The notes beneath the pieces were generated by a model. That model was not told the origin of the DNA. It saw only the letters and a list, made by a program, of their open reading frames with translations, and did not search any database. The position numbers and the translations under genes were made by a program. 64,000 nt of DNA from an uncultured bacterium (lineage in GTDB: Bacteria > Cyanobacteriota > Vampirovibrionia > Gastranaerophilales > Gastranaerophilaceae). The stretch covers positions 33,337 through 97,336 of the forward strand of contig CACYUI010000002.1 of assembly GCA_902777605.1 (NCBI GenBank), given 5' to 3'. This document shows, piece by piece, positions 31,870 to 58,743 of this stretch; the stretch's first letter is position 1, and each line of letters opens with the position of its first letter.

Positions 31870-31889
31870 ACATAATAGGATTATAATAA

Positions 31890-32165
31890 ATGAATCAAGA
31901 TATAGTTATTACTCTTTTACAAAAAATGTTTATACTTACATTAGAAATGTCAGTTCCAATACTTCTTGTCGGTGTTGTATTGGGCTTGATGGTAAGTATT
32001 TTTCAAACTGTAACACAAATTCAGGAATCAACACTTACATTCGTACCAAAGATTGTAGGTTGTGTTATTCTGCTTATTTTCTTAATGCCTTGGATGTTCA
32101 GCGTCTTTGTTAGTACTGTTAATGAATTTATGAGTATGATTCCACAATTAATCGGTGGGGCATAA
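31890..32165 (+). CDS. fliQ: Flagellar export gate protein FliQ
   Basis: GLMVSIFQTVTQIQESTLTFVPK. Confidence 0.93.
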   Translation: MNQDIVITLLQKMFILTLEMSVPILLVGVVLGLMVSIFQTVTQIQESTLTFVPKIVGCVILLIFLMPWMFSVFVSTVNEFMSMIPQLIGGA

Positions 32166-32944: not shown

Positions 32945-32950
32945 GGTAAT

Positions 32951-34033
32951 ATGGGAAACGAAGCAGCAGAAAGAACAGAAGAAGCCACCGAGCGAAGGCG
33001 GCGTAAAGAACGAGATCGGGGTAATGTATCCAAAAGCCGTGATATGGATGCTGCTCTTGTTATGGTTACAGGTATCGGACTTCTTGCGATTTTTGGGAAA
33101 AAAATGTTTCAAACTATACTCACTATGATGAGAGAAACATTCTCAAATTTGAATCCAAACTCAATTGATGCTACTAATATACAAGGTCTATTACTTCCAT
33201 ATTTTAGATATTTAGCAGTAATTGTACTGCCATTTTTTGTTTTACTTATGATTTTTGCAATTATTATTATAAGAATGGATGTAGGCCCTGTTTTTGCACT
33301 TGAAAAAGTTAAATTTAATCCTGAGAATTTATCGCCAAGAAAATGGATACAAAATGCTAAGCGTTTAATTAATCCATTTGAGCCTCGTTCGTTAGTTGAA
33401 CTTGCAAAATCAATTTTAAAAATAGTAGTGGTTGCTGCTTGTGGTTATTCAGCAGTAAATGCAAGGCGTGGCGATTTGATGGGACTAATTGGTTTGGAAC
33501 CTTCGGTTGCATTACATATAATTTTAACTGTATTAATAAATATGATTATAAACATGTGTCTTGCAATGCTTATATTAGGTTATATTGATAAAAAATATCA
33601 GCATTACGAGTACGAAAAATCTATCAAGATGACTAAACAAGAAATTAAGGATGAACAAAAAGATACTGAAGGAGACCCCAAAGTTAAAGCAAGAATAAAG
33701 TCGATACAAATGCAAATGGCTCGTCAACGCATGATGTCTTCTGTACCGGGAGCAGATGTGGTTGTAACAAACCCTACGCACTATGCTGTTGCAATTAAAT
33801 ATGATAAGACAAAAGCTCCTGCACCAATGGTAGTTGCAAAAGGTGTTGATTATTTAGCATTTGAAATTAAACAAATGGCAAAGGAGCACGGTGTTCCTAT
33901 TGTTGAAAACAGACCTGTTGCAAGAGCACTTTATAATACAGTACCTGTTGACGGTGTTATACCTTCTGATTTGTATGTTGCAGTAGCTGAAATACTTGCT
34001 TATGTTTATAAACAGAAGAACGGCGAAGGCTAA
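32951..34033 (+). CDS. flhB: Flagellar export substrate-switch protein FlhB
   Basis: ERTEEATERRR, KMTKQEIKDEQKDTEGDPKVK, NPTH autocleavage site, PIVENRPVARAL. Confidence 0.95.
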   Translation: MGNEAAERTEEATERRRRKERDRGNVSKSRDMDAALVMVTGIGLLAIFGKKMFQTILTMMRETFSNLNPNSIDATNIQGLLLPYFRYLAVIVLPFFVLLMIFAIIIIRMDVGPVFALEKVKFNPENLSPRKWIQNAKRLINPFEPRSLVELAKSILKIVVVAACGYSAVNARRGDLMGLIGLEPSVALHIILTVLINMIINMCLAMLILGYIDKKYQHYEYEKSIKMTKQEIKDEQKDTEGDPKVKARIKSIQMQMARQRMMSSVPGADVVVTNPTHYAVAIKYDKTKAPAPMVVAKGVDYLAFEIKQMAKEHGVPIVENRPVARALYNTVPVDGVIPSDLYVAVAEILAYVYKQKNGEG

Positions 34034-34116
34034 TATATATTAGTACAAATATATGAAAATATTGTTACAAATTGCTAATTTAACGCAAAGAGTGATATTA
34101 TATAGTTGGTGGAGAG

Positions 34117-36210: not shown

Positions 36211-36224
36211 AAGAAAGGGAATAT

Positions 36225-36818
36225 ATGAGAGAGTTAATAAAAAATGACCAGTTAGTAACAATTGTTCCTCAAGATTTTAAGAATACAAACAAAGGAAAAG
36301 TACTTAATGTTTCAATAGATGGATTTAAAATGGAGTTAAAATATAAACCGGAAGGACTATTTGTTAATCATATTTGTGATTTTTACTCATTTACTGATAA
36401 CGGATATTTATATTTCGAATCATATATTCAATCATTAGAAAATAACATTATAACCATTGCAAATCCGGTAAAACATAGATTCTTACAAAGGCGTAAGTTT
36501 ACTCGTATCAAATTTATTGAAGAATTGGAGCTAACATGTAATAACATTACTCATAAAATTAGAACTCTTGACTTGTCAGCAGGAGGAATGAAAATTCAGA
36601 CACAGGAGAATATTGATATTGAAACTGAGTATAATGTTAGTCTCAAGCTAAGTGATGAACAAGAAATTAAGTGTAAATATCAATTAATAAGAATTGAAAA
36701 AGGTGATAACGGATTATACACAATATCAGGAAGATTTACATCTCTAAGTAACATTGATAAAATGACTTTAGTTCAGTTCTGTATGAAAAAAGACATGGAA
36801 AATATTAATAAGAAATAA
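36225..36818 (+). CDS. PilZ-domain (YcgR-like) c-di-GMP receptor
   Basis: QRRKFTR (RxxxR) and DLSAGGM (DxSxxG). Confidence 0.85.
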   Translation: MRELIKNDQLVTIVPQDFKNTNKGKVLNVSIDGFKMELKYKPEGLFVNHICDFYSFTDNGYLYFESYIQSLENNIITIANPVKHRFLQRRKFTRIKFIEELELTCNNITHKIRTLDLSAGGMKIQTQENIDIETEYNVSLKLSDEQEIKCKYQLIRIEKGDNGLYTISGRFTSLSNIDKMTLVQFCMKKDMENINKK

Positions 36819-42715: not shown

Positions 42716-43150
42716 TTAGCCTCCTTGAAGTAATCCTGTGTCTTGAGCTGCTGTAGAAGTTGCTGTCTTTGCAGATTCTTTTTGAGCTCTTAATTCTTCA
42801 AGCATTGTATCCATTGTTTGTCTCATTGTATCGTAATCAATATCTAAGTCTTCTAATTCTTCTAACAATTCTTCGTTAAATTGTTTTACTTTTGCGTGTG
42901 CATATGCATCTGCTATCGAAGTATTTTGGTTATCTATTGCAACTGTGATGCTGCCACATCTTTTTTCTTTATCATTGCCAATAGCATCATCGTAAGCTTT
43001 TTCCCATTTTTCTTCGTACTTAACTTGCTCTTCAAGTTTTGCACTTACGCCTTCATATTTACTATTCCAATAAATAGATTGCTGAGTATAATAGTTTATG
43101 TCTGCATTGATTGCTAATAAATTTCCTAATAAAGCTGCTGTGTTTGACAT
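42716..43150 (-). CDS. Lineage-specific helical protein (144 aa), homolog of 57533-58645
   Basis: AAGG RBS; N-terminal LLAINA; C-terminal DIDYD...MDT...ES.K motif shared with 57533-58645. Confidence 0.75.
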   Translation of the reverse strand: MSNTAALLGNLLAINADINYYTQQSIYWNSKYEGVSAKLEEQVKYEEKWEKAYDDAIGNDKEKRCGSITVAIDNQNTSIADAYAHAKVKQFNEELLEELEDLDIDYDTMRQTMDTMLEELRAQKESAKTATSTAAQDTGLLQGG

Positions 43151-43176
43151 TTTCTTATACCTTTTGTTTCATCTTA

Positions 43177-43245
43177 CATATATATAAAGTATTTAAAAAT
43201 TATTGAATTTCAAAAAGGTTTTATTTTGTTACAAAAGTTTACATT
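43177..43245 (-). promoter_or_regulatory. Class-A promoter with HLR1-like direct repeat
   Basis: HLR1 43228-43245 (GTTACAAA-ag-TTTACATT) - 14 nt - TTGAAA - 16 nt - TACTTTATATATATG. Confidence 0.7.
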
Positions 43246-43387
43246 TACCATGAAATAAGTAATAATAGTGATTCTAACATTCATTTAAATAAGAAAATAA
43301 TTTTTAATAAAATTTTTGTATTATTAAATACATATTAACCAATACGGTAATAAGAAAAATTTTTTTAAATGTGTTATCCTTATATTT

Positions 43388-45217
43388 ATGAAAAGAGTTT
43401 TGGGATTAATTTTAATATTTTTATTTGTAGTTTTAGCAGCAAAGTCTTGTTTAAAGGCTGATATTCCTGAAAAGTGCTCATGCATATACTTGCAAGATAA
43501 CAATGAATCAGTAGAGTATCCGGCTCCAAGCAAAAATGTAACAATAAATGGCATAGATTACATACAAACACAAGCTCCAATAGGAAACTTTGGCGGAGAG
43601 CTGATAATATCTACAATAGGAGAAGGTCCGAAAACATTTAATCCTTGTAATACAAAAGATGCAACATCTTCTTCTATGGCAGGACTTATGTATGACGGTT
43701 TATTGTCTACAGAACCAAGAACAGGAGATGTAATCCCACAACTTGCAAAATCTTTTGAAATTAACGGCAATGAATATACAATTCACTTAAGAAAAGGAAT
43801 TAAATGGTCTGATGGAAAACCTATAACGGCAGATGATGTAATGTACACATACAATGATATTGTTTTTAAAGGATTGGGGAATCCATCAACAATGGATGCA
43901 ATGATGATTGATGGTAAGTTGCCTGAACTCGAAAAAATTGATGATTTTACAGTAAAATTTATTGTTACAAAACCGTTTGCACCGTTTTTAAGGCAATTGT
44001 CTTATCCTATTGTGCCAAAACACTATTTTAAACCTTATTCAGATAAAGGTACCTCTGCATTTAACACTTTTTTAAATCCTAACACCAAGCCTGAAACAAT
44101 CGTAACAAATGGAGCATTTAGGCTAAAAGAATATGTTGCTGCTCAAAGAGTTGTATTTGTAAAAAATCCAAATTATTATAAGATAAATCTTCAAAATCAG
44201 AAACTGCCGTATTTAGATAAACTTGTTTATTTAATAGTAGGTGATACAAATAATGAAATATTAAAGTTTGAAGCAAAAGAAACTGACATACTCTCTCTTA
44301 AAGGAGATAATGTTGCAAGATATAAGCAAAAAGAAAAATTTTCAGATTACTCTGTATATAATTTAGGTGCAGATACAGGAACTCTTTTTATAGTTATAAA
44401 TTTAAATAACCGTAAAGATAAAGACGGAAAGTATTATGTCAATCCGATTAAACAAACTTGGTTTTCAAATAGAAGCTTCCGTTCAGCATTAGATTGGGCA
44501 ATCGATAGAAAAGGTATCGTTCAAAACATAGCATTTGGTGTTGCAGAGCCGTTATTTACAGCAGAAAGTCTAAACTCAATATACTTAAATAAATCCATAA
44601 AAGGACACAAAATGGATAAACAGATGGCGCTAATGCGGCTTAAAGAGGGCGGTTTTAAACTAAATAATGGCAATCTTTATGACAATAAAGGTAATCGAGT
44701 TGAATTTGATATATATACAAATGCAGGAAATTTAGAAAGAGAAGCAATTGGAGTCATGGTAAAACAGGATTTAGAGGATTTAGGCATGAAAGTCAACTTT
44801 AAGCCTGTAGAATTTAATTCTCTAGTTAATAAACTTACAAATACACATGATTGGGACATGGCAATAATGGGACTAACGGGTTCGCCTCTTGAACCTCACG
44901 ATGGTAAAAATGTATGGACATCTTCAGGTTCTCTGCACATGTTCAATATGCGTCCGGCCGGATATAAAATAGATGACCGACTAAGTTGGGAAAAAGAATT
45001 AGATGATATTTTCAACGAGGCTTCGTTGAAATTAAATTATAGCGAACGAAAACCGCTATATGACAGATATCAGGAAATTGTATACAACGAAAAACCGCTT
45101 ATTTATTTATATTCTCCAATTAGAATTACAGCAATAAGAAAAAAATTTAAAAATATTTTCCCGACACCATTGAGCGGTCTTTTGTACAATTTAGAAGAAA
45201 TATATATAGGTAAATAA
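43388..45217 (+). CDS. Oligopeptide/nickel ABC transporter substrate-binding protein (family 5)
   Basis: GPKTFNP, LRKGIKWSDGKPITADDV, NGAFRLKEY, FRSALDWAIDR. Confidence 0.9.
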   Translation: MKRVLGLILIFLFVVLAAKSCLKADIPEKCSCIYLQDNNESVEYPAPSKNVTINGIDYIQTQAPIGNFGGELIISTIGEGPKTFNPCNTKDATSSSMAGLMYDGLLSTEPRTGDVIPQLAKSFEINGNEYTIHLRKGIKWSDGKPITADDVMYTYNDIVFKGLGNPSTMDAMMIDGKLPELEKIDDFTVKFIVTKPFAPFLRQLSYPIVPKHYFKPYSDKGTSAFNTFLNPNTKPETIVTNGAFRLKEYVAAQRVVFVKNPNYYKINLQNQKLPYLDKLVYLIVGDTNNEILKFEAKETDILSLKGDNVARYKQKEKFSDYSVYNLGADTGTLFIVINLNNRKDKDGKYYVNPIKQTWFSNRSFRSALDWAIDRKGIVQNIAFGVAEPLFTAESLNSIYLNKSIKGHKMDKQMALMRLKEGGFKLNNGNLYDNKGNRVEFDIYTNAGNLEREAIGVMVKQDLEDLGMKVNFKPVEFNSLVNKLTNTHDWDMAIMGLTGSPLEPHDGKNVWTSSGSLHMFNMRPAGYKIDDRLSWEKELDDIFNEASLKLNYSERKPLYDRYQEIVYNEKPLIYLYSPIRITAIRKKFKNIFPTPLSGLLYNLEEIYIGK

Positions 45218-45218
45218 T

Positions 45219-46202
45219 ATGGAATTTGCAAAATATATACTTAAAAGATGTTTACAAACTATACCATTATTGATAATAGTGTCGATAATAAGTTTCTTTA
45301 TAATAAGGCTTGCTCCAATTGATCCTCTTGCGGAATTGAGATTAAATCCTTCTATTTCGCAAGAAACACTAAATAAAGAAATTAAAAGGTTAAATTTAGA
45401 CAAGCCCATTTATATACAGTATTTTTCATGGGCGAAATCATTTATTAAAGGAGATTTAGGATATACCTCCGCAGGAGAAAAAGTATCAACAAAGCTAAAA
45501 GAACGAATACCAAATACACTGTTACTTACTGTAATTGTTATATTTATGACATGGATAGTAGGAATACCGCTTGGTATTTTTGCTGCAATAAAAAAAGGAA
45601 CTGTTTTTGACAGAATACTTACTGTGATTTCTAGTATAGGAATGGCAATTCCATCATTTTTCTTTGCAATTTTAATGCTAATGTTTGCAGTAAAAACAGG
45701 ATGGTTTCCGGTTGGGGGTCTTACAAGTTACAACTATAATGAAATGAGTTTTATTGGTAAGTTAATTGATCTTTCACGACATTTATGTCTTCCTGTAATA
45801 GTTCTATTTACTATATCTCTTTCCGGATTACAAAGACAAATGAGAGCAAACATGCTAGAAGTATTAGATTCAGATTATATAAAATTTGCGAGAGCAAAAG
45901 GTCTTAGCGAAGCAAAAGTTATATATAAACACGCACTCAGAAATGCAATTAATCCAATGATAACACTTTTAGGATTTGAGTTTGCAGGACTTCTCAGCGG
46001 CGCAGCTTTGACAGAATATGTATTTCAATATCCTGGGCTTGGTAGATTGATTCTTGAGGCAGTTATGAAATCGGACATAAATCTAGTTATGGCTTCTTTG
46101 ATGATGGGTACAATAATGTTAATCTTAGGTAATTTGATTGCAGATATTCTTTTAATGATTACCGATCCTCGCGTGAGAAAAACTTCTGCGGAGGTACAAT
46201 GA
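45219..46202 (+). CDS. Oligopeptide ABC transporter permease (OppB/DppB-like)
   Basis: DYIKFARAKGL (EAA loop), KHALRNA, EYVFQYPGLG. Confidence 0.92.
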   Translation: MEFAKYILKRCLQTIPLLIIVSIISFFIIRLAPIDPLAELRLNPSISQETLNKEIKRLNLDKPIYIQYFSWAKSFIKGDLGYTSAGEKVSTKLKERIPNTLLLTVIVIFMTWIVGIPLGIFAAIKKGTVFDRILTVISSIGMAIPSFFFAILMLMFAVKTGWFPVGGLTSYNYNEMSFIGKLIDLSRHLCLPVIVLFTISLSGLQRQMRANMLEVLDSDYIKFARAKGLSEAKVIYKHALRNAINPMITLLGFEFAGLLSGAALTEYVFQYPGLGRLILEAVMKSDINLVMASLMMGTIMLILGNLIADILLMITDPRVRKTSAEVQ

Positions 46203-47266
46203 TGGAATTTATAAAGAAACTATTTGATGATAAATTTGCAAAAGCAGCATTTTTAATACTTTCAATTTTATATTTATTAATAATTTTTGCAGATTTTATT
46301 GCACCTTATTCAAGCAATTATTCTAACAGGGAAATGTCTTATGCACCACCATCTCAAATATATACAATTAATGAGAAGGGCAAACTCTCTCGACCATATA
46401 CTTATAATTATATTAGAAAATATGATCCTGCTCTTATGCAAACTGTATACAAACAAGACCGATGTAAAAAACACTATCTAAGGCTTTTACCAAAAGGTGA
46501 AGGATATAAATTTTTAGGTATAATACCAACTCACAGGCACTTGTTCGGAACAAACGATGGAGGACAATTATACTTATTAGGAACTGATATAAATGGAAGA
46601 GATGTTTTTTCCAGATTGCTATTTGGGGGTAGAATTTCTATGACAGTAGGATTCTTATCTTTATTAATAGTCTTTCCAATAGGTCTATTGTACGGAGGTA
46701 TTTCAGGATATTTCGGAGGAATTATTGATACATTAATGATGAGATTTGCCGAAGCTATAATGGCGATTCCAAGCTTTTACCTTTTAATTATTCTTGCTGC
46801 AATTTTACCGAGTGGAATGACAAGTGTTCAGAGGTTTGCTCTAATTGTTGTAATTTTAGCTCTTATCGGCTGGGCAGGGTTTGCGAGAGTTGTGAGAGGT
46901 ATGGTTCTTTCTATTAAACAAGAGGATTTTGTTCAGGCTGAAAAAGTTATTGGAGCATCAACACTAAGAATTATTCTAAAACACATTATTCCACAGACAA
47001 CGAGTTATGTTATTATTGCAATGACATTAAGTGTACCTTCATATATATTAGCGGAATCTGGTCTAAGCTTTCTAGGTTTAGGAATACAACAACCTGATGC
47101 GAGTTGGGGAAATATGCTTAAAGAAGCACAAGAATTTACAAATATTCTATACAGGCCCTGGCTTCTAGCTCCAGGGGGATTAATATTTATTGCAGTTTTG
47201 TCATTCAACATACTAGGAGATGCAATTCGAGATATACTTGATCCTAAAGGTGAAGTCAGAAGATAA
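46199..47266 (+). CDS. Oligopeptide ABC transporter permease (OppC/DppC-like)
   Basis: LGTDINGRDVFSRLLFGGRISM, KHIIPQ, ESGLSFLGLGIQQPDASWG. Confidence 0.92.
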   Translation: MMEFIKKLFDDKFAKAAFLILSILYLLIIFADFIAPYSSNYSNREMSYAPPSQIYTINEKGKLSRPYTYNYIRKYDPALMQTVYKQDRCKKHYLRLLPKGEGYKFLGIIPTHRHLFGTNDGGQLYLLGTDINGRDVFSRLLFGGRISMTVGFLSLLIVFPIGLLYGGISGYFGGIIDTLMMRFAEAIMAIPSFYLLIILAAILPSGMTSVQRFALIVVILALIGWAGFARVVRGMVLSIKQEDFVQAEKVIGASTLRIILKHIIPQTTSYVIIAMTLSVPSYILAESGLSFLGLGIQQPDASWGNMLKEAQEFTNILYRPWLLAPGGLIFIAVLSFNILGDAIRDILDPKGEVRR

Positions 47267-47282
47267 GCTGATATTTAGCATA

Positions 47283-48296
47283 TTAAATAATTTCTTTACC
47301 CACAATCGGGGCAATTTGCTTAATTTGTTTATATAAAAGATCATATTGCCATGGATACAAAGATTGAGCACCGTCACAGACAGCTCTGTCAGGATCATAA
47401 TGAACTTCTATTATCAAACCGTCACAACCTGCAGCTACTGCAGCTCTGGACATTGGTTCTACCTTATCACGCAGCCCAGTTGCATGAGATGGGTCTATAA
47501 TGATTGGCAAATGACTCAATTTTTTGATTACAGGAATTGAAGTCAAGTCTAAAGTGTTACGAGTGAATTTTTCAAAAGTTCTTATCCCTCTTTCGCAAAG
47601 TATAACTTGGTTGTTTCCGCCAGCCATAATATATTCTGCTGACATAAGCCATTCTTCATATGTAGAGGACAGCCCTCTTTTTAAAATTACAGGCTTATGG
47701 GCGTGACCAAGTTCTTTTAGCAAATTAAAGTTCTGCATATTTCTTGCGCCTACTTGAAGAATATCAACATATTTTTCAAACATAGTTAATTGAGAGCTTT
47801 CCATAATTTCAGAAGTTACTGCCATACCGTGGTTATCTGCAACACTTCTTATAATTTTGAGCCCTTCTTCTCCCATACCTTGAAATGCATATGGGCTCGT
47901 TCTTGGCTTAAACGCTCCCCCTCTTATGATTTTAACATTTGATTCAGATAGTTCTTGTGCTGTTTCATCCATTTGGTCATAAGATTCAATCGTGCAAGGA
48001 CCTGCGATAAGTCCAGTATACTTGTCACCAAATTTTACTCCATTAACTTCTACAATTGTATCTTTACCCTGACAAGCTCTAGCAGCTAGTTTGTAGTTAG
48101 TAGAAAGTTTTATAACTTCATCAACACCTTGCAGAAGTTCGAAATCTCTTAAGTCGACTTCTTTTGTACCTATTGCATGAACTACCGTTCTTGCTTCCCC
48201 ATGTGATACACGAGCTTCAAAACCTTTTGATTCTATAAATAACGCAACTCTTTGGATATCTTTTTCGGTTGCGTGACTATTCATTACAACGAGCAT
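47283..48296 (-). CDS. aroF: DAHP synthase (type I-beta, N-terminal ferredoxin-like regulatory domain)
   Basis: IAGPCTIES, GGAFKPRTSPYAFQG, QVGARNMQNF, LCERGIRTF, DPSHATG. Confidence 0.93.
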   Translation of the reverse strand: MLVVMNSHATEKDIQRVALFIESKGFEARVSHGEARTVVHAIGTKEVDLRDFELLQGVDEVIKLSTNYKLAARACQGKDTIVEVNGVKFGDKYTGLIAGPCTIESYDQMDETAQELSESNVKIIRGGAFKPRTSPYAFQGMGEEGLKIIRSVADNHGMAVTSEIMESSQLTMFEKYVDILQVGARNMQNFNLLKELGHAHKPVILKRGLSSTYEEWLMSAEYIMAGGNNQVILCERGIRTFEKFTRNTLDLTSIPVIKKLSHLPIIIDPSHATGLRDKVEPMSRAAVAAGCDGLIIEVHYDPDRAVCDGAQSLYPWQYDLLYKQIKQIAPIVGKEII

Positions 48297-48381
48297 TCTT
48301 AAATCCTCCGATTAAGTCAATTATACATCAAAATTTTTTAAATAATTACCAATCAAAAATACATCATGCTATAATTTTGGT

Positions 48382-51204
48382 ATGACAGAAAAGATTACGA
48401 TTAAGGGAGCAAGAGAACATAACCTAAAGAATGTATCATTAGAAATTCCAAAGAATGAACTTGTTGTTTTTACAGGCGTTTCAGGTTCTGGAAAAAGTTC
48501 ACTTGCATTTGATACTATTTTTGCTGAAGGTCAAAGACGCTATATAGAAAGTCTTTCTACTTATGCACGCCAATTCTTAGGACAAATGGATAAGCCTGAT
48601 GTTGACTATATAGACGGGCTTACACCGGCAATTTCAATTGATCAAAAATCGACTAGCAACAACCCTCGTTCCACAGTAGGAACTGTTACAGAAATTTATG
48701 ATTATTTAAGGCTTTTGTATGCAAGAATTGGTACTCCTTATTGTCCTAAATGCGGAAAACCTATAAAACCGCAAACTATTGACGAAATTGTAGACAGCAT
48801 ATTAAAAATGCCTGCAGGCACGAAAATACAAATACTTGCCCCGCTGGCAAAAGGCAAAAAGGGAGAATTTGTTTCTTTGTTCGAAGAGCTCAGACAAGAA
48901 GGTTTTGTTAGAGTAAAAGTTGATGGCGAAATATATAATCTTGATGAGGATGAAGTTAAACTTGCTAAAACAAAGGCACATACAATTTCTGTTGTTGTAG
49001 ATAGAGTTGTTGTAAAACCGGAAGCCCGTTCAAGAATTGCAGATTCTGTTCAAATTGCTCTTAAAAAGGCGGACGGAATTACAAATATTGATAAGCTCGA
49101 CGGAGAAGAAATAATTTACAGTGAAAAGCTGGCATGTCCTGATTGTAATACAAGTTTTGAAGAATTAACACCGAGAATATTCTCATTTAATGCCCCATAT
49201 GGCGCCTGCCCAAAGTGTGGCGGCTTGGGAGTAGATTTTAGAATTGATCCCGATCTTGTAGTACCCGACAGAGCGAAATCTGTTAATGAAGGTGCAATTT
49301 ACCCTTGGAGCAAGTCATCAACTTCTTATTATGATGATGTATTGGCGGCAGTAGAACTTGCTTATAATATCGATTATGATATTCCGTTTGAGGATTTACC
49401 AAAAGAACATCAAGATATTTTATTATATGGTTCAAACGAGAGAATACCGATGAGAATAAGAGAATTTGGTTCTCACAGATACAGAAATGTCTTGCAAAAA
49501 TTTATCGGAGTTATCCCATTTTTGATGAAACATTACAACATAGAAAGCGAATATTGGAAAGCAGAAATAGAAAAATATATGGTTACTACTCCTTGCGAAG
49601 AATGTGGTGGTGCAAGGCTTAAACCATTCCCACTTGCTGTTAGAATCAATGGAGTTAACATTTATGAATTCTGTAAAATGCCTATAGATAAAGCACATGA
49701 ATTTATAACAGATTTGTATTTAACCCTAACAGATTTTCAAATGAAAATTGGTAAACAAATTTTGGATGAACTTCGTGCAAGACTTAAATTTTTGTGTGAT
49801 GTAGGTTTAAATTACTTGGATTTAGCAAGAGCTGCAGGTACCCTTTCAGGCGGAGAAGCCCAGAGAATTAGATTGGCAACACAAATAGGAAGCGGACTCT
49901 CAGGAGTCTTGTATGTTCTCGATGAACCATCTATTGGATTGCATCAAAGAGATAATGACAGGCTTATTAAAACTCTTATGAAGCTCAGAAATATGGGCAA
50001 TTCTTTGATTGTTGTAGAGCACGACGAGGATACAATAAGAAATGCAGATTATGTAGTTGATATTGGACCAAAAGCAGGAGTTAACGGTGGAAATGTAATA
50101 GCACAAGGAAGAGTAGATGATATTATTTCCTGCGAAAAATCCATAACCGGTAAATACCTGAGCGGTGAATGGAATATTCCATTACCTAAAAAAACAAGAG
50201 AAGGAAACGGAAATTTCTTACAAATAAGAAACGCTTTTAGAAATAACCTAAAAAATATTGACCTCGATATTCCTTTAGGTAAGATTGTTGTACTGACAGG
50301 AGTTTCAGGTTCAGGCAAATCAACACTTATGCAGGATTTGATTTATGAGTACGCAATACATAAATTAAGAAAAAATAAACCAAAACCGCAAGGAGTAGGT
50401 GAAATATTAGGGTTTGAAAACCTTGATAAAATTATAGACATTGACCAATCACCAATTGGCAGAACACCTAGGTCTAACCCTGCAACATATACGGATGTTT
50501 TTACTCCTATAAGAGAGCTCTATGCAAAGACTAACGAAGCTAAAATGCGAGGATATAAAGCCGGAAGATTTAGCTTTAATGTAAAGGGCGGAAGATGTGA
50601 AGCTTGCCAAGGTGATGGTGTTTTAAAAATAGAAATGAACTTCTTATCAGATGTTTATGTAAAATGTGATGTTTGTAAAGGGAAACGCTACAATAATGAA
50701 ACACTAGAGGTTAAGTACAAAGGGAAAACAATTTCAGATGTCTTAGAAATGAGTGTAAAAGAAGCATATGAGTTTTTTGAAAACATACCTCAAATCGCAA
50801 ACAAGCTAAAAACTCTTAATGATGTCGGCTTAGATTATATAAAGCTTGGGCAGAGTGCAACTACACTTTCAGGAGGAGAAGCGCAAAGAATTAAACTTGC
50901 ATCAGAACTAAATAAACGCGCAACAGGAAAAACTCTTTATCTTTTGGATGAACCAACAACTGGTTTACATTGGTACGATTTAGATAAGCTCATAAAGATT
51001 ATTCAGCAGCTTGCCGATAACGGAAACACTATTTTGATAATTGAACACAACTTGGATTTGATAAAAGTTGCTGATTACATCATCGATCTTGGGCCTGAAG
51101 GCGGTAATGCGGGCGGAGAAGTCGTTGCCTGCGGGACACCAAAAGAAGTATCAAAAAATCCGAAGTCATATACAGGTCAATATCTAAAACAATATTTTTC
51201 ATAA
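48382..51204 (+). CDS. uvrA: Excinuclease ABC subunit A
   Basis: GAREHNLKN, two GVSGSGKS Walker A motifs, LSGGEAQRI twice, Zn fingers. Confidence 0.98.
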
Positions 51205-51266
51205 TAATTGTTGATTATTACACAATTATCACTGACAAATTGTAATATTTAAAATATAATATTAAT

Positions 51267-52421
51267 ATGAAAAATTATGCACAAAAAGCAATTATATGGT
51301 TATGTTTAGGGCATTTAGTTTGTGATATTTATACAGGTTTTCTTAATCCGATAATGCCGTTTATAGCTGCAAAACTTGGTTTTTCAATGGCAGTAGCGAC
51401 TGTTATTATAAGTATTTCTCATATATGTTCATCTATGTTACAGCCATTATTTGGATTTTTTGCTGATAATATGCTAAAGAGATTTTTCATATTTTGGGGA
51501 CTAATATTAGTTTCAGTTTTTATTCCTATGGCACCATTAACTCCAAATGTTTATTTTCTTTTGATTTTTATGATACTTGGAAGTCTTGGCGGAAGTTTTT
51601 TTCACCCGCAATCAATGGGATTTGTAAATATTTTTTCAGGGAATAAATGCTCCGAATATATGGGAATATTTATTAGCGTTGGCTCGTTAGGTTTTGCTTT
51701 AGGACCTTTACTTGCAGCATACATAACACAAATTATAGGACTTGACCACATTGCATTCACATCTGTTTTAGGTCTGACACTTGCGTTTACAATGTTTGCT
51801 TTTGTACCTAAGCTTTCAGTAACAGAAAAATTACCTAAACATAAAGAATTTATAAAATCTTTTAAAGAAATCCTCAATAATCGCCAGATGGACTATTTAA
51901 TGCTTATTGCAATGATGAAATCACTTGTAACAAATAGTTCTTGCATATTGCTACCATTTTTATGGAAAAATATGGGATACACGCCATTTTATATCGGATT
52001 TGCACTCTTCTTATTTGTATTTGCAGGAGCAGTCGGATCATTTTTAAGTCCTAAAGCAGAAAAAATATTCGGTTCAAAATCTATAATATATTTTTCTATG
52101 TGGGCAACATTCCCGATGTTATTGGCATTTGGATTTTTATATAAAACACACGCAATAATTTCTTTAATAATGTTTGCAACAATTGGGTTTACAACAATGT
52201 TGGCACAACCGGTAACTATGGTATGGGCACAAAGAACCCTACCGCAATATAGAAGCATTGTTGCTGGATTTATTAACGGATTTTGTTGGGGAACAGTAGC
52301 GCTTTGTATGTCGATTTTAGGTGCAGTTGCACAAAAATTTGGAATAATGAATGTACTTATTATTTTGAGTATAATTCCAATACTATCGTCACATTTTGTA
52401 AAATACTTAAAAGAAGATTAA
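51267..52421 (+). CDS. MFS transporter (Fsr/fosmidomycin-resistance-like)
   Basis: ~12 TM; QPLFGFFAD, FHPQS, GSLGFALGP. Confidence 0.8.
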   Translation: MKNYAQKAIIWLCLGHLVCDIYTGFLNPIMPFIAAKLGFSMAVATVIISISHICSSMLQPLFGFFADNMLKRFFIFWGLILVSVFIPMAPLTPNVYFLLIFMILGSLGGSFFHPQSMGFVNIFSGNKCSEYMGIFISVGSLGFALGPLLAAYITQIIGLDHIAFTSVLGLTLAFTMFAFVPKLSVTEKLPKHKEFIKSFKEILNNRQMDYLMLIAMMKSLVTNSSCILLPFLWKNMGYTPFYIGFALFLFVFAGAVGSFLSPKAEKIFGSKSIIYFSMWATFPMLLAFGFLYKTHAIISLIMFATIGFTTMLAQPVTMVWAQRTLPQYRSIVAGFINGFCWGTVALCMSILGAVAQKFGIMNVLIILSIIPILSSHFVKYLKED

Positions 52422-52456
52422 TTTTATAGTATAATACCTTTCAGGGAGCTAATATT

Positions 52457-53584
52457 TTGACAAACCTATTTAATAAGTATTTTGATGATTTTAAAAATCC
52501 AAAACTGCTGGATAAATATATTTTAAAGCAGGTAATTGAAATGTTCATAATGGGCGTTTTAGTATTCACATCTATTATTTTTGCTTCTGATACATTTATT
52601 ACACTAATAAAACAGATTTCCATGTACGGAATTCCTTTTAAAATTGCGTTTCTAATTATTATATTACATCTGCCTGCTGTATTCGTAATGACAATTCCAA
52701 TGGGAGTTCTACTTGCAACGGTAATGACATTAAATGGTTTAAGTCTTAGCTCCGAAATCACTGTTATGAGAGCATGTGGAATCGGATTAAATAGAATTGC
52801 AAAACCAATATTTATATTTGCAATTGTAATGGCATGCATTAGCTTTGTTGTTAATGAAACAATAGTACCAATTATGACAAAACAATCAACAGACTTGGCT
52901 TTATATGCGTTTAGCAAAAAGAATATACCGGAAGGAAAACATAATTTTACATTTAAAGAAGTCAAAGACGGAGGGTCATTAAAGCGTCTTTTTTATGTAG
53001 GTGATTGCACAAATGAAACATTGCATAATATTACAGTTATGGATGCTTCAAAAGACGGAACAATTCAAATTCTACAGGCAAGAGAAGGTACAACAACAGA
53101 AGAAGGTTGGAAATTTCAAAAAGGTGCTATATACACTGTAACTAACAGAGGTAAAGCTTTAGACACTACTATGTTTGAAGATTCTACAATAAATTTCGGT
53201 ATGGATTTATCTGACGAAATAAACAGAAATATGGCAAATGAGCGTAATTTTATTAAATTATTTAAATTTATAAAAACGGCAAAACCGGAGGATAGACAAT
53301 GGCTTGCTGTAAGCATGTATGATAAAATTGCTCTTCCCTTAACAACAGTTGTATTAGTTCTGATAGGAGTTCCACTGGCAATTACTCCTCCAAGAGTTAG
53401 ATATAACAGAGGATTTTTATTCAGCATTTTAATTATTTTTGCGTATTACCTTATTAGAGCCTTATCAATATCATTTGGAGAAGCCGGTTCATTAGCGCCG
53501 TCATTGGCAGCATTTATGCCTAATATAGTACTAGCTATAGCAGGTATTGGTTTGTATTATAGAAAAGTTTATACAATTTGTTAG
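52457..53584 (+). CDS. LPS export permease LptF/LptG family
   Basis: TTG start; LDKYILKQ, SEITVMRACGIGL, PLTTVVLVLIGVPLA, AAFMPN. Confidence 0.88.
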   Translation: MTNLFNKYFDDFKNPKLLDKYILKQVIEMFIMGVLVFTSIIFASDTFITLIKQISMYGIPFKIAFLIIILHLPAVFVMTIPMGVLLATVMTLNGLSLSSEITVMRACGIGLNRIAKPIFIFAIVMACISFVVNETIVPIMTKQSTDLALYAFSKKNIPEGKHNFTFKEVKDGGSLKRLFYVGDCTNETLHNITVMDASKDGTIQILQAREGTTTEEGWKFQKGAIYTVTNRGKALDTTMFEDSTINFGMDLSDEINRNMANERNFIKLFKFIKTAKPEDRQWLAVSMYDKIALPLTTVVLVLIGVPLAITPPRVRYNRGFLFSILIIFAYYLIRALSISFGEAGSLAPSLAAFMPNIVLAIAGIGLYYRKVYTIC

Positions 53585-53593
53585 GCACTGCAT

Positions 53594-54421
53594 ATGGATA
53601 GATATAGGTTAATTGGAAGTATAATTTTTCTATATGTGATGCTTTTAACAGAATATCCGTTACCTACTATTATAACAACGATTGTGATTATTGCAGCATA
53701 CTTGATTATCAGATTTGCACCAAATATCGGTGCAAACAATAAAGGCTTTTACAATATACATTCTAATAGAGGAGCTAGATTAGCTGCATTGGATGTAGCA
53801 GCAATATATCTATCACCTTATACAGACATTTGGCGAAATCTTAAGCTAACCAACAAGAATTGCATTGCAATATTAGGACATAACGGAGAAAGAATTGTAG
53901 TCAGAGAAAAAACGCATAATACTAATGCTCCCTATAGAACATTCCGTATTATACAATCTAAAAGGTATAATATGCAAGAAGTTTGGAATATGTTTTGCTT
54001 AAATTTTGATTACCATACAACTTATGATGATTTAGTATTTAAGTGTAAAGAACTTTTTAAAGTATCAATATTAGAAAGTTATAACGGCAACACATCTGTA
54101 TCAAGCACTGCTTCTAAAATTTATAAGAACAATAAATCCGTAATTGAAAACAACACAAGCAATGATAATATCAAAAAAGTTGATATTAATAATGCATCAG
54201 AGATTGAATTAACGGAGCTTCCGGGAATAAGTATTGTAATATCTAAAAAGATAATAAAAAAACGAGAAGAAATAAACGGTTTTAAAAATATTCATGACTT
54301 CTTCATGTTTATCAAAGTTAAACCTCACATGGAAGAACAATTAAAAGATAAAATATGTGTAAATGAAATGAAAGGTTCACTAAAAATTGAGCGTTTTCAG
54401 GAAAGGCATATTGATTTTTAA
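53594..54421 (+). CDS. Membrane protein with C-terminal ComEA-like helix-hairpin-helix
   Basis: Two N-terminal TM helices; VDINNASEIELTELPGISIVISKKII. Confidence 0.75.
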   Translation: MDRYRLIGSIIFLYVMLLTEYPLPTIITTIVIIAAYLIIRFAPNIGANNKGFYNIHSNRGARLAALDVAAIYLSPYTDIWRNLKLTNKNCIAILGHNGERIVVREKTHNTNAPYRTFRIIQSKRYNMQEVWNMFCLNFDYHTTYDDLVFKCKELFKVSILESYNGNTSVSSTASKIYKNNKSVIENNTSNDNIKKVDINNASEIELTELPGISIVISKKIIKKREEINGFKNIHDFFMFIKVKPHMEEQLKDKICVNEMKGSLKIERFQERHIDF

Positions 54422-55237
54422 ATGGATATAATTAATTTGATTGATATTATAGTTATCATATTTGTTTTATTAGTTATATATATAGCTAGAAGTATAGAAC
54501 GAAAAAATATTCAAAAGCGTTCAGAATTAGAAAGACGCTTGCACATTTTTATGAATCAAGGAAAAATTAAAAACAGACTAATAAACGCCAACTGTGAAAT
54601 ACGACTTATAAACATTGGGTCATTAACTAAAAACAATAATTTAGTATTGTTCTGCAAAGAGCACCCACTACCGGGTAGATTAGGCAAAAAATTTACATTA
54701 TCTGATACAAGAGAGCATGTTGCTACTATATGGGCAATGTTCAACATGGAATTTAATAATGCAACAAATATTAATTCTTTAAAGACATTATACGCTCTGC
54801 TAAACCCAAGATACAAATATTTATTGAATGAAAATAGTAAAACTTATGAAAACCTATTGCCTGAAAATATGGCAGAAAATGAATATTGCAGAATGGAACT
54901 GGTACAACAAAAACTAAACGAATTTGTATTAATTGTATATGATATTTGGGATTGTTCTGAAGAACCAAGAAATTTTATAATAAAAGGAAGTTATGACTAT
55001 CTCAACAGAATATTAACAGAATTTAAATTGAAAAAAAATAAATTTAGAATGTTTTATGAAATAAAAAATGATTATCAATTACAAAATGATAATGAAGTTA
55101 TAGTAAAACCTCAAGATGAAATTGTTAATCCTGAATCAAACGAAAAGACAGTTTACAGTAATGAAAAGGAAAATTTTTATAAAAATACTATTGAACAATA
55201 TATTCAAAAGAATAACGAGAGAAAGCTGGATTTATAG
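54422..55237 (+). CDS. Hypothetical membrane-anchored protein, partial paralog of 53594-54421
   Basis: N-terminal TM; shared WxMFxxxFxxxT motif; C-terminal ERKLDL versus ERHIDF. Confidence 0.65.
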   Translation: MDIINLIDIIVIIFVLLVIYIARSIERKNIQKRSELERRLHIFMNQGKIKNRLINANCEIRLINIGSLTKNNNLVLFCKEHPLPGRLGKKFTLSDTREHVATIWAMFNMEFNNATNINSLKTLYALLNPRYKYLLNENSKTYENLLPENMAENEYCRMELVQQKLNEFVLIVYDIWDCSEEPRNFIIKGSYDYLNRILTEFKLKKNKFRMFYEIKNDYQLQNDNEVIVKPQDEIVNPESNEKTVYSNEKENFYKNTIEQYIQKNNERKLDL

Positions 55238-55834
55238 ATGAAGCTTAGAGTATATAATATTGTAAAAAATACTAAAGTTGAAGGTCCTGAAACGAGATAT
55301 TGCATCTGGGTACAAGGATGCTCCAAACACTGCAAAGGATGTCAAGCTACTCATACTTGGTCACACAATGGCGGTAGATTATATAAAGTAAGTGATATTA
55401 TAGACGATATAAAATTTCACAAAAATAAGGTTGAAGGAGTAACCTTTCTAGGTGGTGAACCTTTTGAACAATCAGAGGCATTGGGAATAATAGCAGAAGA
55501 AGTCCAAAAAATGGGACTTGGAGTTTTATGTTTTACTGGAAATTTATTGGAAGATTTACTTAAAAACAAAAAACATACAAAACTTCTTAAAAATACTGAT
55601 TTACTTATTGACGGCGCATTTGAAAAAGACAAAGTTGATTATTCGCGTCCTTGGTGCGGATCCTCAAATCAAAGATACCATTTTTTATCAAAAAGATATA
55701 ATGAAGAAATTTTTACAAAATACAAAAACAAAGTAGAAGTTAACATAAATCCTAATGGCATAGTTTTTATGAACGGAATGGGAAATTTTGAAAAAATTCT
55801 CAAAAAAATTGATTTGAAAAATATCGAAAAATAA
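55238..55834 (+). CDS. NrdG-like radical SAM / 4Fe-4S single-cluster protein
   Basis: VEGPETR...WVQGCSKHCKGC (CxxxCxxC), GVTFLGGEPFEQ, DLLIDG, WCGSSNQ. Confidence 0.85.
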   Translation: MKLRVYNIVKNTKVEGPETRYCIWVQGCSKHCKGCQATHTWSHNGGRLYKVSDIIDDIKFHKNKVEGVTFLGGEPFEQSEALGIIAEEVQKMGLGVLCFTGNLLEDLLKNKKHTKLLKNTDLLIDGAFEKDKVDYSRPWCGSSNQRYHFLSKRYNEEIFTKYKNKVEVNINPNGIVFMNGMGNFEKILKKIDLKNIEK

Positions 55835-55865
55835 GAGAAGGTACACTATTATGTACCTTCTCTTA
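55832..55865. terminator. Hairpin between convergent genes
   Basis: TAAGAGAAGGTACA-ctatta-TGTACCTTCTCTTA. Confidence 0.7.
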
Positions 55866-55882
55866 CATATATTTCATTAAAA

Positions 55883-57346
55883 TTAAATATTAGCAAGTTT
55901 CTTATAGTAATCATGTGATTGCTCAAACTTATAAGCAAAGTTAAATAATTTAGCTTCTGCCAGTTGAGGTGCCATTATTTGCAGTCCTATCGGCATACCA
56001 TCTTTATCAAACCCAGCCGGTATTGAAATAGCAGGTATTCCTGAAAGATTTGCACCAATAGTGGCAATATCTGTCAAATACATAGCGAGCGGATCCTCTG
56101 TTTTTGAACCTAAGTCAAAAGCTGTATTAGGGCATGTTGGTGCTATTAGTACATCTACTTGTTCAAAAGCCTTCAAAAAGTCTTCGTGAACAACTCTTCT
56201 CATTTGCAAGGCTTTTTTATAATATGCATCATAATATCCTGAGCTTAAAGCATATGTCCCAAGCATTATACGGCGTTTAACTTCAGGCCCAAACCCTTCT
56301 GCACGAGATTTGCAATAAAGTTCGAGCAAATTCTTAGCATCAGGAGTCCTGTGACCGTATCTTACACCATCGAATCTGGCTAAGTTAGAACTACATTCCG
56401 CTGTTGCTAGGATATAATAAATACCAATTGAATGCTTTATATTTGGTAAAGAAATTTCAATAATTTCTGCACCTATTGATTTATATGTATCAATTGCACC
56501 TTGAATTGCTTTTGATACATCTTCTGATAAGCCTTCACCGACAAGTTCTTTAACTACACCGACTTTCAATCCTTTAATATCATTATTTAAACTCTTTCTG
56601 TAATTTTCCACAGGAAGATTAAGTGAAGTAGAGTCATGATAATCATAACCCGATATAACCTCTAAAAGAGCAGCTGCATCTTCTACAGTTCTAGCAAATG
56701 GACCTATTTGGTCAAGAGATGATGCAAACGCAATCAAACCATACCTTGATACCTTACCGTACGTAGGTTTCATACCAACAATCCCACAGAAGCTTGCAGG
56801 TAAACGAATACTTCCACCTGTATCTGATCCTAATGCAAGCGTAGCTTCACAAGAAGCAACGGAAGCTGCAGAACCACCTGAAGAACCTCCCGGGACTTTA
56901 TTTAAATTCCAAGGATTATGAACTTTTTTAAACGCTGAGTTTTCATTAGAAGAACCCATCGCAAACTCATCTAAATTTGCTTTACCAACAATTGGAATTA
57001 AGTTATCCAAAAGTTTTTGTGTTGCAGTTGCGTTATATGGTGAGACAAAGTTCTCTAAAATTTTGCTGGATGCTGTAGTTTTAGAGCCTTTAAGGTTCAT
57101 GTTATCTTTCAGCGCAAGCGGTACCCCTGCAAGAAGCGGTAATTCTTCACCAGCTGCGATTTTTTCATCGACTTTTTTTGCAGTATTGAGTGCAATTTCC
57201 TCCGTTAATGAATTAAAAGCACCTAACTTTTCATCAACTGACTTAATTCTATCTAATGCAGCACTCGTAAGCTCAACTGCTGATACTTCTTTATTTTTAA
57301 GCGCTTCTGATTGTTCTATTGCGCTCTTCTTTAATATCTCTAGCAT
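55883..57346 (-). CDS. gatA: Asp/Glu-tRNA amidotransferase subunit A
   Basis: GKANLDEFAMGSS, PGGSSGGSAA, GSDTGGSIR, VSRYGLIAFASSLD, EVKRRIMLGTY. Confidence 0.97.
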   Translation of the reverse strand: MLEILKKSAIEQSEALKNKEVSAVELTSAALDRIKSVDEKLGAFNSLTEEIALNTAKKVDEKIAAGEELPLLAGVPLALKDNMNLKGSKTTASSKILENFVSPYNATATQKLLDNLIPIVGKANLDEFAMGSSNENSAFKKVHNPWNLNKVPGGSSGGSAASVASCEATLALGSDTGGSIRLPASFCGIVGMKPTYGKVSRYGLIAFASSLDQIGPFARTVEDAAALLEVISGYDYHDSTSLNLPVENYRKSLNNDIKGLKVGVVKELVGEGLSEDVSKAIQGAIDTYKSIGAEIIEISLPNIKHSIGIYYILATAECSSNLARFDGVRYGHRTPDAKNLLELYCKSRAEGFGPEVKRRIMLGTYALSSGYYDAYYKKALQMRRVVHEDFLKAFEQVDVLIAPTCPNTAFDLGSKTEDPLAMYLTDIATIGANLSGIPAISIPAGFDKDGMPIGLQIMAPQLAEAKLFNFAYKFEQSHDYYKKLANI

Positions 57347-57465
57347 ACTTTCTCCTTAGGGGCAAATCATCCCATACCCCACAACATTAATTATATCAAA
57401 AACAAAAATAGAAACAAAATTTTAGTATCTAACCTGCTACTATATTAGCTTATTAGGATTTTAAT

Positions 57466-57493
57466 AAAAAAAAAGCTTGAGTAAAACTCAAGC
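57466..57493 (-). terminator. Intrinsic terminator
   Basis: Minus strand GCTTGAGT-ttt-ACTCAAGC-T9. Confidence 0.8.
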
Positions 57494-57532
57494 GGAAAAA
57501 GGGAAAAGGGATTAAAAAGGGAAATCTTACAT

Positions 57533-58645
57533 CTATGAGAAGATACCGAATGTTCTTTCGATATTATCCTCAATAACTTTTTTGACAGAATCATACTCAG
57601 TTTTGAGAGCTGATCTTTCGGTTTCAAGTTTTGATAAATCCATATCAAATCTTTTATCTTTTTGGTCAATTTGTTTTCTTTTGTGTTCATACTCGGCTTC
57701 GGCTTTTGCATAAGCTGTTTTATCAATTGTTGTAGTTGCAACTTCTTCAAGACCTGAATCCGACGCAACAGTTGTAGCTTTGAACGAAACTTTACCTGTT
57801 TTAGAATCTCTTTCTGATACATCAACAATAATTTTTCCAGAACTAATCATTTGCTTTAACCATTCAGAATCATTTGCAGCATCACCGATTCCATCAATAC
57901 CATCAAATTCAGAAATTGCTACACATCCATTAGCTTGTTGAATTTCTTGGAAAATACGTACATAGTAATCAAATTCAGCGCTATCTTTGTCGGTAGGTTC
58001 ACCACCTATTGCATAATCATATACCTCACTGAAAGTGGAACTAAAGAATCTAAAATTGTATTCGTCTTCTAATGCTTGAAGTTTTTCTAAATCTTCATCA
58101 CTTATATCTTCATTATCACCATCTTCATCATATCCGATGTCTTCTTTGAATTTATCTATTTTACTTTGTATATTATCAAGATAAGATGTATTTTCTAATA
58201 AATCATACACATCCTCTTTTAATCCTATATAGTCATATTCATCTTCTATGTCAAACATAGCAAAAAGAGCAAATGCGTAAGGATCATTCTTATTAGCAGC
58301 AGAGCTATTTATAAAATCTTCATAATCTTCTTTTATCTGATCGGGAACAATAAGTCTACCCTTATCATCAATAAGTGCATATCTACCGTTTTTTGAATGA
58401 GGTACTACAAGTTCAGAACCATCAATTCCGCAAATATTATTAAAGTTAGCTGTAATTAAATTCCCTTGATAATCTTTAGCAACTAAAGTAGTAGCACTTG
58501 TAGCATTTAGGAAATCTTGGTATACCTGGTCTTCTTGTGTAGCCAGGGCAATCTTCGCGTTCTGAATACTTTGTGCTTGGTATTCAACGTCGTGCATTCT
58601 TGCTGTAATTGTTAGCAATCTAGCTTGCGATGCCGCCATTCCCAT
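57533..58645 (-). CDS. Lineage-specific helical protein (MGMAASQARLL family), 370 aa
   Basis: Start moved to ATG 58645 (AAGGA RBS); helical N-terminus MGMAASQARLLTITARM; helical C-terminus ending IERTFGIFS; acidic middle. Confidence 0.8.
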   Translation of the reverse strand: MGMAASQARLLTITARMHDVEYQAQSIQNAKIALATQEDQVYQDFLNATSATTLVAKDYQGNLITANFNNICGIDGSELVVPHSKNGRYALIDDKGRLIVPDQIKEDYEDFINSSAANKNDPYAFALFAMFDIEDEYDYIGLKEDVYDLLENTSYLDNIQSKIDKFKEDIGYDEDGDNEDISDEDLEKLQALEDEYNFRFFSSTFSEVYDYAIGGEPTDKDSAEFDYYVRIFQEIQQANGCVAISEFDGIDGIGDAANDSEWLKQMISSGKIIVDVSERDSKTGKVSFKATTVASDSGLEEVATTTIDKTAYAKAEAEYEHKRKQIDQKDKRFDMDLSKLETERSALKTEYDSVKKVIEDNIERTFGIFS

Positions 58646-58680
58646 AATTCTAATTTCCTTTTGTTGTCCCTTTGACATGT

Positions 58681-58743
58681 ATATCGGCATCTAAGGTTGA
58701 AAACTTTAGGATTTCACAGAATATTGTTACAAATCGTTACAAT
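58681..58743 (-). promoter_or_regulatory. Sigma28-type promoter with HLR1-like repeat
   Basis: TAAAGTTT-N12-GCCGATAT (58681-58708); HLR1 58726-58743 (GTTACAAA-tc-GTTACAAT) 17 nt upstream. Confidence 0.75.

Follow-up and report, generated by a model that had tools for sequence, protein, structure and literature searches.

Does a gut bacterium of the Melainabacteria encode, beside its ordinary flagellar genes, a second family of proteins built like flagellin? Melainabacteria are non-photosynthetic sisters of the Cyanobacteria, commonly found in the guts of humans and animals but essentially uncultured, and to our knowledge their flagella have so far been inferred from canonical genes only. We analysed a 64-kb stretch (the window) of a ruminant-gut Melainabacteria genome of the Gastranaerophilales type, in which rpoC1 and rpoC2 are split. 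A preliminary description of this window had paired a protein of 144 amino acids (aa; gene at 42716-43150) with one of 370 aa (57533-58645), both on the minus strand, as homologous helical proteins with conserved ends and a variable middle, possibly subunits of a filament or sheath. Both open reading frames (ORFs) are present, and we find the 370-aa gene to be one copy of a multi-paralogue, uncharacterised family so far seen in Melainabacteria only. Our preferred reading, which we hold at a probability of about 0.45, is that this family consists of late flagellar-regulon proteins with a stalk of paired end helices, an exposed hypervariable head and a likely route of export through the flagellum. 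The 144-aa protein is possibly a remote relative or partner of the family, and not a demonstrated paralogue. The earlier observation is thus partly confirmed and its interpretation partly supported; what appears to be new is an uncharacterised, lineage-specific family in the Melainabacterial sigma-28 regulon that is flagellin-like yet not a flagellin.

The 370-aa family and its promoter

The 370-aa coding sequence encodes an acidic protein (MGMAASQARLL...ERTFGIFS) and begins at 58645 (MGMAAS), which is the conserved start; that of a longer, 385-aa ORF is not conserved. Its family is large, with 2016 clusters at 90% identity and 3358 representatives at 50%. All 79 loci found to carry such genes come from metagenome-assembled genomes of the Melainabacteria/Gastranaerophilales type, although distant members in other lineages would escape the locus scan because it used two family-specific peptide patterns. 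Members range from 203 to 689 aa, and the length and sequence differences fall in the centre, between nearly invariant termini that comprise the first ~70 and the last ~80 residues. Among members at a median identity of 88%, variability peaks in columns 100-220 and the first 40 residues are ~98% fixed. Each genome has two to three paralogues, with termini mostly 60-98% identical and, in divergent pairs, a middle of 26-57% identity. AlphaFold2 models the 370-aa protein (predicted local distance difference test, pLDDT, 78) as a helix at residues 3-49, a mixed alpha/beta middle and a second helix at 309-369, and the family also has two conserved cysteines and one conserved tryptophan. Conserved end helices, a hypervariable centre and several paralogues within one genome, the architecture and behaviour that had been called flagellin-like, are therefore all properties of the 370-aa family. 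They are not properties of the 144-aa family, in which conservation is uniform at a fixed size and ~70% identity, so that the claim of conserved termini around a variable middle holds for one of the two proteins.

The sigma-28 promoter that had been proposed for one of the two genes is found upstream of the 370-aa gene as a FliA (sigma-28)-type promoter, TAAAGTTT-N12-GCCGATAT (58681..58708, minus strand), with the end of its -10 element 35 nt before the ATG. It fits the sigma-28 regulon signature TAAA(GTTT)-N11-15-GCCGATAA at a suitable distance from the start codon, and the motif has three matches where 0.08 are expected. The promoter is kept across the family: TAAAG[ATC]3-N9-14-NCCG[AT][ATC][AT], typically TAAAGTTT-N11/12-GCCG[AT]AA, precedes 64 of the 67 family genes whose upstream region was long enough, and the distance from its end to the ATG is nearly always 32-46 nt, with three outliers at 64-98 nt. 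Strict sigma-28 motifs number 75 in 1.15 Mb of fetched loci; 65 of them precede genes of the family and the remainder precede homologues of a 751-aa ORF of the window and a few other uncharacterised proteins. No FliA-class sigma factor was found within the 64-kb window; in a related genome (L018), the divergent neighbour of a 370-family gene encodes a FliA_WhiG-class sigma (228 bits, cutoff 189.6), which passes both the FliA_WhiG and the FliA NCBIfam cutoffs.

Two further elements accompany the promoter. An HLR1/RpaB-like direct repeat (58726..58743), GTTACAAATCGTTACAAT on the plus strand and TTGTAAC-GA-TTTGTAAC when read toward the gene, ends 17 nt upstream of the -35 element TAAAG. In 46 of the 64 loci the -35 element is preceded, at exactly 17 or 27 nt, by a direct repeat of the form TGTAA[AC]-N4-TGTAA[AC], and the two spacings differ by one helical turn. 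Downstream, the short 5' leader (58646..58675, minus strand) contains two GGA motifs, one in AAGGGACAA (58672-58664) and one in the Shine-Dalgarno sequence AAGGA (58660-58656). The motif [AG]GGGA[AC]A precedes the Shine-Dalgarno sequence in 45 of the 64 loci, and by reading, every leader listed has a Shine-Dalgarno sequence of the AGGA type. We infer that the two-GGA leader is a candidate site for CsrA-type translational control. If borne out, the combination of box, FliA promoter and GGA leader would offer a first view of a cyanobacterial-type regulator integrated into the control of flagellar genes.

The same arrangement of box and sigma-28-type promoter is seen at the 751-aa ORF of the window (12571-14826, minus strand; promoter 14843-14869, box 14887-14904). 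The encoded protein is built of helical repeats, is rich in Cys at its C-terminal end (CKCTCDGHSPNEG) and belongs to no Pfam family; its homologues in L011 and L062 share this promoter and are encoded 4-6 kb away from genes of the 370-aa family.

The genomic surroundings of the family are mixed. In one genome (L067), a 689-aa paralogue with the same promoter is followed directly by fliD, slt, flgF, flgG, flgA, flgI and a rod-binding gene. In another (L072), the orthologue stands after rpoC2, as in the window, and is followed by a tetratricopeptide repeat gene and then by fliW-csrA. Canonical flagellin genes adjoin family members in L002 and L044, and a recognised flagellar gene lies within 10 kb in 17 of the 79 loci. 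Because of the promoter consensus and this neighbourhood, we read the family as a probable late (class-3-like) member of the flagellar regulon; a search for RNA-seq runs returned none. The preliminary description held that such a family should not occur in genomes lacking the flagellar export gate, and the window does contain gate genes by Pfam and NCBIfam, namely fliP (31117-31869), fliR, flhB and flhA (34117-36210); the window genome is predicted to be that of a flagellated bacterium. The export-gate operon (31117-36818, plus strand) runs fliP, (fliQ), fliR, flhB and flhA and ends with a gene for a PilZ-domain protein. On its 5' side, after nusG-rplK-rplA, are two ORFs that could not be annotated (28927-29511 and 29799-31016).

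The 144-aa family and its possible kinship with the 370-aa family

The 144-aa coding sequence (42716..43150, minus strand) encodes an acidic helical-hairpin protein (MSNTAALLGNLL...DTGLLQGG) of a strongly conserved, one-size family, with 373 clusters that are all 143-145 aa long and ~70% identical over their whole length. AlphaFold2 (pLDDT 82) places a helix at residues 2-56, a beta-hairpin and a second helix at 77-138, and Foldseek returned no significant match for this model, its non-significant resemblances being to prefoldin-beta and Vipp1-type hairpins. Several features that had been ascribed to both proteins stand. Their N-termini, read directly, are not signal-peptide-like, in agreement with the claimed absence of Sec signals; both genes are monocistronic as judged by their geometry, and the 370-aa gene is also followed, 40 nt past its stop codon, by a terminator-like hairpin and T-run of the intrinsic type (57475..57493, minus strand). 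Both proteins are acidic (isoelectric point 4.3-4.4), and searches of Pfam, NCBIfam and PDB sequences with either gave nothing beyond coiled-coil noise.

An HLR1-like box had been reported for both genes, and that of the 144-aa gene lies at 43228..43245 and is kept in orthologous loci. By sequence, the boxes conform to the HLR1 type, (G/T)TTACA(T/A)(T/A) N2 (G/T)TTACA(T/A)(T/A) upstream of a promoter. The window contains five exact matches against 1.1 expected, all five upstream of minus-strand genes without a Pfam match. Elsewhere the box precedes rpoB, rpsJ and a flagellin; therefore, its presence at both genes implies no shared function, and we rejected it as a mark of a motility regulon. 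The promoter of the 144-aa gene is likewise of another kind, a conserved block that is not of the sigma-28 type (TTGAAAT-N13-AAATACTTTATATATATGTAAGAT; 43171..43213, minus strand). Box and block are common to the orthologous loci, and the block also precedes the genes of a third family, c146, and two other ORFs of the window. Its AATACT core presumably resembles the cyanobacterial SigJ 'J-box'. The two ORFs, one of 84 aa (6511-6765, minus strand; box at 6842) and one of 395 aa that is Gly/Phe-rich (8735-9922, minus strand; box at 10003), have an upstream block almost identical to that of the 144-aa gene (box ... ATACTTTATATATAT).

The kinship of the two proteins had been argued from motifs at both ends. 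At the N-terminus, the proposed LL-x-I-x-A is not conserved in the 144-aa family, where the I is T in most members. At the C-terminus, the outcome depends on the type of comparison. Standard searches gave nothing significant: BLASTP in the proposed register has E=11, the hidden Markov model (HMM) of the 370-aa family reaches ~3 bits against the 144-aa family, and hhalign assigns 1.5-4.4% probability in a different, gapped register. The 36-residue C-terminal alignment has seven identities and a BLOSUM62 score of 23, which 13% of shuffles reach. The register nevertheless recurs in end-anchored comparisons. In 61 of the members of the 370-aa family scanned, it is exactly the best ungapped placement of the C-terminal 36-mer of the 144-aa protein, with the FGIFS tail left over. 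Home-made end-anchored profile tests, which covered the C-termini of 1354 ORFs (1266 as background) at a low alignment diversity (effective number of sequences about 1.5) and addressed a register chosen post hoc in the preliminary description, point the same way. With the 144-aa C-terminal profile, 3 of the 1266 background ORFs exceed the median of the 370-aa family; in the reciprocal test (z=4.2), one of 1266 exceeds the 144-aa ORF of the window; and for the window pair, composition-matched shuffles that keep the register fixed give p=0.002. Similarity at the N-terminus is less marked, with z=2.15, 22 of 1086 background ORFs as good and a constant M1/M3 offset. The C-termini of FliD score almost as high in the anchored test (z ~3.7), and some of the signal may be a general property of coiled coils at C-termini.

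Further hairpin families bear on the same question. The c146 family (597 clusters; L050:8517-8948, L029:1-396) consists of 143-aa acidic hairpin proteins that match the 144-aa family in size and in type of promoter, with evidence that suggests occurrence in the same genomes; some of its proteins carry the precomputed Pfam accession PF27255. The C-terminal HMM of the 370-aa family matches c146 with E=2.4e-5, and hhalign gives 47% over 58 ungapped columns. In the anchored test, the c146 profile reaches z=5.3 to the 144-aa family and z=4.3 to the 370-aa protein of the window, with none of the 1266 background ORFs as good, and hhalign of c146 against the 144-aa family gives 4% in yet another register. 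A 111-aa mini ORF (L053:15138-15473, minus strand; MGLIASSFRMMYLTA...SSFTYNFGR) is matched by the N-terminal HMM of the 370-aa family at E=2.2e-6 and by the C-terminal one at 0.011, and looks like a 370-family protein with its middle deleted. The ~260-aa proteins of the c50 family (MALLLAMYQK...APKFGLG; L029:11418-12218, L015:1695-2480, L022:2990-3775, L030:5428-6192) are encoded by box-preceded genes, two of the four being immediate convergent neighbours of 370-family genes, and have the same end-anchored C-terminal module. The 144-aa 36-mer lands at the equivalent end-anchored position in c146, c50 and the 111-aa form. A module [DE]xx[YFL]D...[DE]T...[DE]SxK with a short hydrophobic-Gly tail is thus common to the 144-aa and 370-aa families and to no fewer than three further families of hairpins, namely c146, c50 and the 111-aa form. 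We put remote homology of this module between the 144-aa and 370-aa families at roughly even odds, and the hairpin-only proteins may be minimal relatives of the 370-aa family.

Possible roles of the 370-aa family

In the reading that we prefer, the 370-aa gene would be transcribed from its FliA (sigma-28)-type promoter, with an OmpR/RpaB-type direct repeat one or two helical turns upstream of the family's promoters, and CsrA/FliW may gate translation of its mRNA, as for flagellin. The terminal helices of the protein would pair into an antiparallel coiled-coil stalk, which would dock or assemble it, and an acidic hypervariable head at the tip of the hairpin would face diversifying pressure. As there is no Sec signal, the protein would most likely leave the cell through the flagellar type III gate and then serve as a surface protein, either associated with the flagellum or secreted. 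The 144-aa protein would represent a minimal helix/beta-hairpin/helix form of a separate family with a different promoter, having only the upstream box in common with the 370-aa gene.

Several observations weigh against this reading. The two conserved cysteines and the tryptophan are unusual for flagellar axial proteins, and most 370-family genes, the window copy included, sit among housekeeping genes; the cysteines and this context of most copies call for caution. The HLR1-like box is a general site and not specific to motility. That the helices at the two ends pair is suggested by secondary structure and by Foldseek matches to antiparallel coiled coils, and the standard searches and the FliD scores described above do not favour kinship with the 144-aa protein. 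Finally, canonical flagellin genes in these genomes lack the strict sigma-28 motif; therefore, the regulon differs from a textbook class 3. The flagellin genes of L029, L034, L035 and L044 have another upstream motif, [CG]TGAAA[TC](A)TGTGGAA[TC], together with TGTAA-type boxes, so that the flagellins of this lineage may be transcribed from promoters of a different class.

The main rival would keep the 370-aa family in the cytoplasm, where it would be a coiled-coil adaptor or regulator acting in the late motility programme instead of an exported structural protein. It could belong to the circuitry around FliW/CsrA/FliA, as a partner switch, chaperone or titrating factor, or be a scaffold associated with the motor or with chemotaxis. 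The lack of a recognised secretion signal of any kind, the conserved Cys and Trp residues, the neighbourhood of fliA and fliW-csrA, and the extreme conservation of both helices, which fits conserved cytoplasmic partners, all agree with such a role, as do weak SpaM/FliJ-like coiled-coil matches in 17 members (best E=0.041). It would, however, be atypical for a regulator to show central hypervariability almost at strain level and two to three divergent paralogues, features that are typical of exposed proteins, and the spread in length from 203 to 689 aa speaks against it as well; we consider this role rather unlikely. More doubtful still is the proposal of true homology between the 144-aa and 370-aa proteins, in which both would be unrecognised subunits of an axial filament or sheath and would polymerise, like flagellin, through their terminal helices. 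Flagellin-like conservation, paralogy and sigma-28 control, the paralogue immediately upstream of fliD, the end-anchored C- and N-terminal similarity in one collinear register, and the coexistence of hairpin-only and insert-bearing forms, as of rod/hook proteins with flagellin, would be expected of such subunits. Yet there is no similarity in sequence or fold to any axial protein, canonical flagellins and FliD are present, the 144-aa family is not under sigma-28 control, its homology to the 370-aa family is statistically unproven, and the latter has conserved cysteines.

The opposite view, in which the two proteins are unrelated, is a serious contender that we place somewhat short of an even chance. 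The similarity would then reflect convergent coiled-coil composition (acidic, Thr/Ser-rich amphipathic helices), and the 144-aa protein would belong to a separate, box-controlled and non-flagellar regulon. The failure of BLASTP and HMM searches, hhalign values of about 4% or less in conflicting registers (that for c146 against the 144-aa family included), the FliD scores in the same anchored test, the different promoters and the generality of the box, which also precedes rpoB and rpsJ, fit this view. It has more difficulty with the recurrence of one register in 61 members of the 370-aa family and three further families, with the anchored ranks of 3/1266 and 1/1266, with the shuffle result, and with the c146 profile, which links both families at z >4 without an equal in the background. 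At the other extreme lies a superfamily of coiled-coil hairpins specific to flagellated Melainabacteria (minimal forms of 111-144 aa, the ~260-aa c50 proteins and forms of 203-689 aa with hypervariable heads). Its members would pass through the type III apparatus of the flagellum and assemble, by way of their conserved end helices, into an extracellular or flagellum-coating structure not seen before. We regard this as a long shot; if true, it would be a second axial-like protein system that evolved independently of flagellin.

Under our preferred reading of late flagellar-regulon proteins, a large sigma-28-controlled family unrelated to known flagellar proteins would imply a component or cargo of the motility apparatus that has not been described, and its hypervariable head would suggest exposure to host immunity or phages.

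Other genes were met in the same surroundings. Low-complexity proteins with Gly/Met/Tyr/Asn/Pro-rich N-termini, an 'NPY' motif and no Pfam family recur (window 11629-12339, plus strand; L041:17977-18981 and nine other loci; L018:5473-6756); several of their genes are box-preceded, and many have a gene of the 370-aa family within 10 kb. Two sigma-28-preceded ORFs (L060:9469-10818 and L042:566-1555) lack a signal peptide and have an EF-hand-like DxDxNG near the N-terminus, and one of them has a subtilase (Peptidase_S8) domain; an SLT-like reading of the L042 ORF was not supported by Pfam. A 99-aa ORF of the window (15420-15719, plus strand; start MNKEKQYYVYILFSKYNGTLYVGVTNNL) looks, by reading of its sequence, like a member of the GIY-YIG nuclease family.

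Comparison with flagellin and other known systems

Membership of the 370-aa family in the flagellins or other axial families was not borne out. Neither the window protein nor any of 118 family members matched Flagellin_N/C (PF00669, PF00700) at E values up to 10, whereas a canonical flagellin, that of L044, reaches 94.7 and 69.7 bits with the same Pfam library. Pfam and NCBIfam scans of the 118 members gave generic coiled-coil noise only, and hhalign of the family against seven Melainabacterial flagellins and Hag gave 0.6% probability. With the 370-aa model, the best Foldseek match in the PDB was the MukB elbow (E=0.015, TM 0.13), the FljK filament ranked 41st (E=4), and BFVD yielded nothing significant for either model. 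A PDB sequence match to eL20 (E=1.4e-4 with a shallow profile) disappeared with a deeper profile and was treated as spurious. Flagellins have been reported for this lineage (PMC3787301). In the genomes studied here, canonical flagellins and FliD are present and easily recognised; the family therefore replaces no missing axial protein, and we rejected it as a substitute for flagellin, FliD or FlgL. On these comparisons, the 370-aa family is not a divergent flagellin either.

The likeness to flagellin, FlgL, FlgK and FliD is one of architecture and setting: conserved end helices, a hypervariable middle, several paralogues, no Sec signal and, in some genomes, a place beside fliD or flagellin genes. 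Unlike axial proteins, the family lacks Flagellin_N/C, FliD and Flg_bb_rod domains and has conserved cysteines. A single helix at each end contrasts with the four-helix D0/D1 arrangement of flagellin, and the C-terminal FGIFS differs from the LSLLR/G-type end of flagellin. The control region has a counterpart in hag of B. subtilis, which likewise combines a sigma-28-type promoter with a two-GGA leader. For the upstream box, the cyanobacterial HLR1/RpaB regulon provides the comparison: the window has exact consensus matches at five sites, conserved in position upstream of promoters, but in a non-photosynthetic lineage and with uncharacterised proteins, rpoB, rpsJ and a flagellin as targets.

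Small or secreted proteins of flagellar and related systems offer further parallels. In the type III needle and filament subunits and chaperones PrgI/MxiH and EspA with CesA, which fold as helix-turn-helix hairpins, assembly is driven by conserved termini. A minimal shape of this kind may also be that of the 144-aa, c146 and 111-aa forms, although no similarity is detectable and no injectisome genes were seen. FlaG is a small protein encoded upstream of fliD in many flagellar loci and part of the late flagellar clusters of other bacteria. The L067 paralogue occupies the same place immediately upstream of fliD, but the family has no FlaG Pfam match, is much larger and multi-copy, and most of its copies are not beside fliD. 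The FspA and Fed proteins of Campylobacter are sigma-28-dependent, non-flagellar proteins secreted via the flagellar type III apparatus. They have no sequence relationship to the 370-aa family, yet the family resembles them in being lineage-specific, lacking a signal peptide and being probably co-expressed with late flagellar genes, and it would, on our preferred reading, resemble them in secretion as well.

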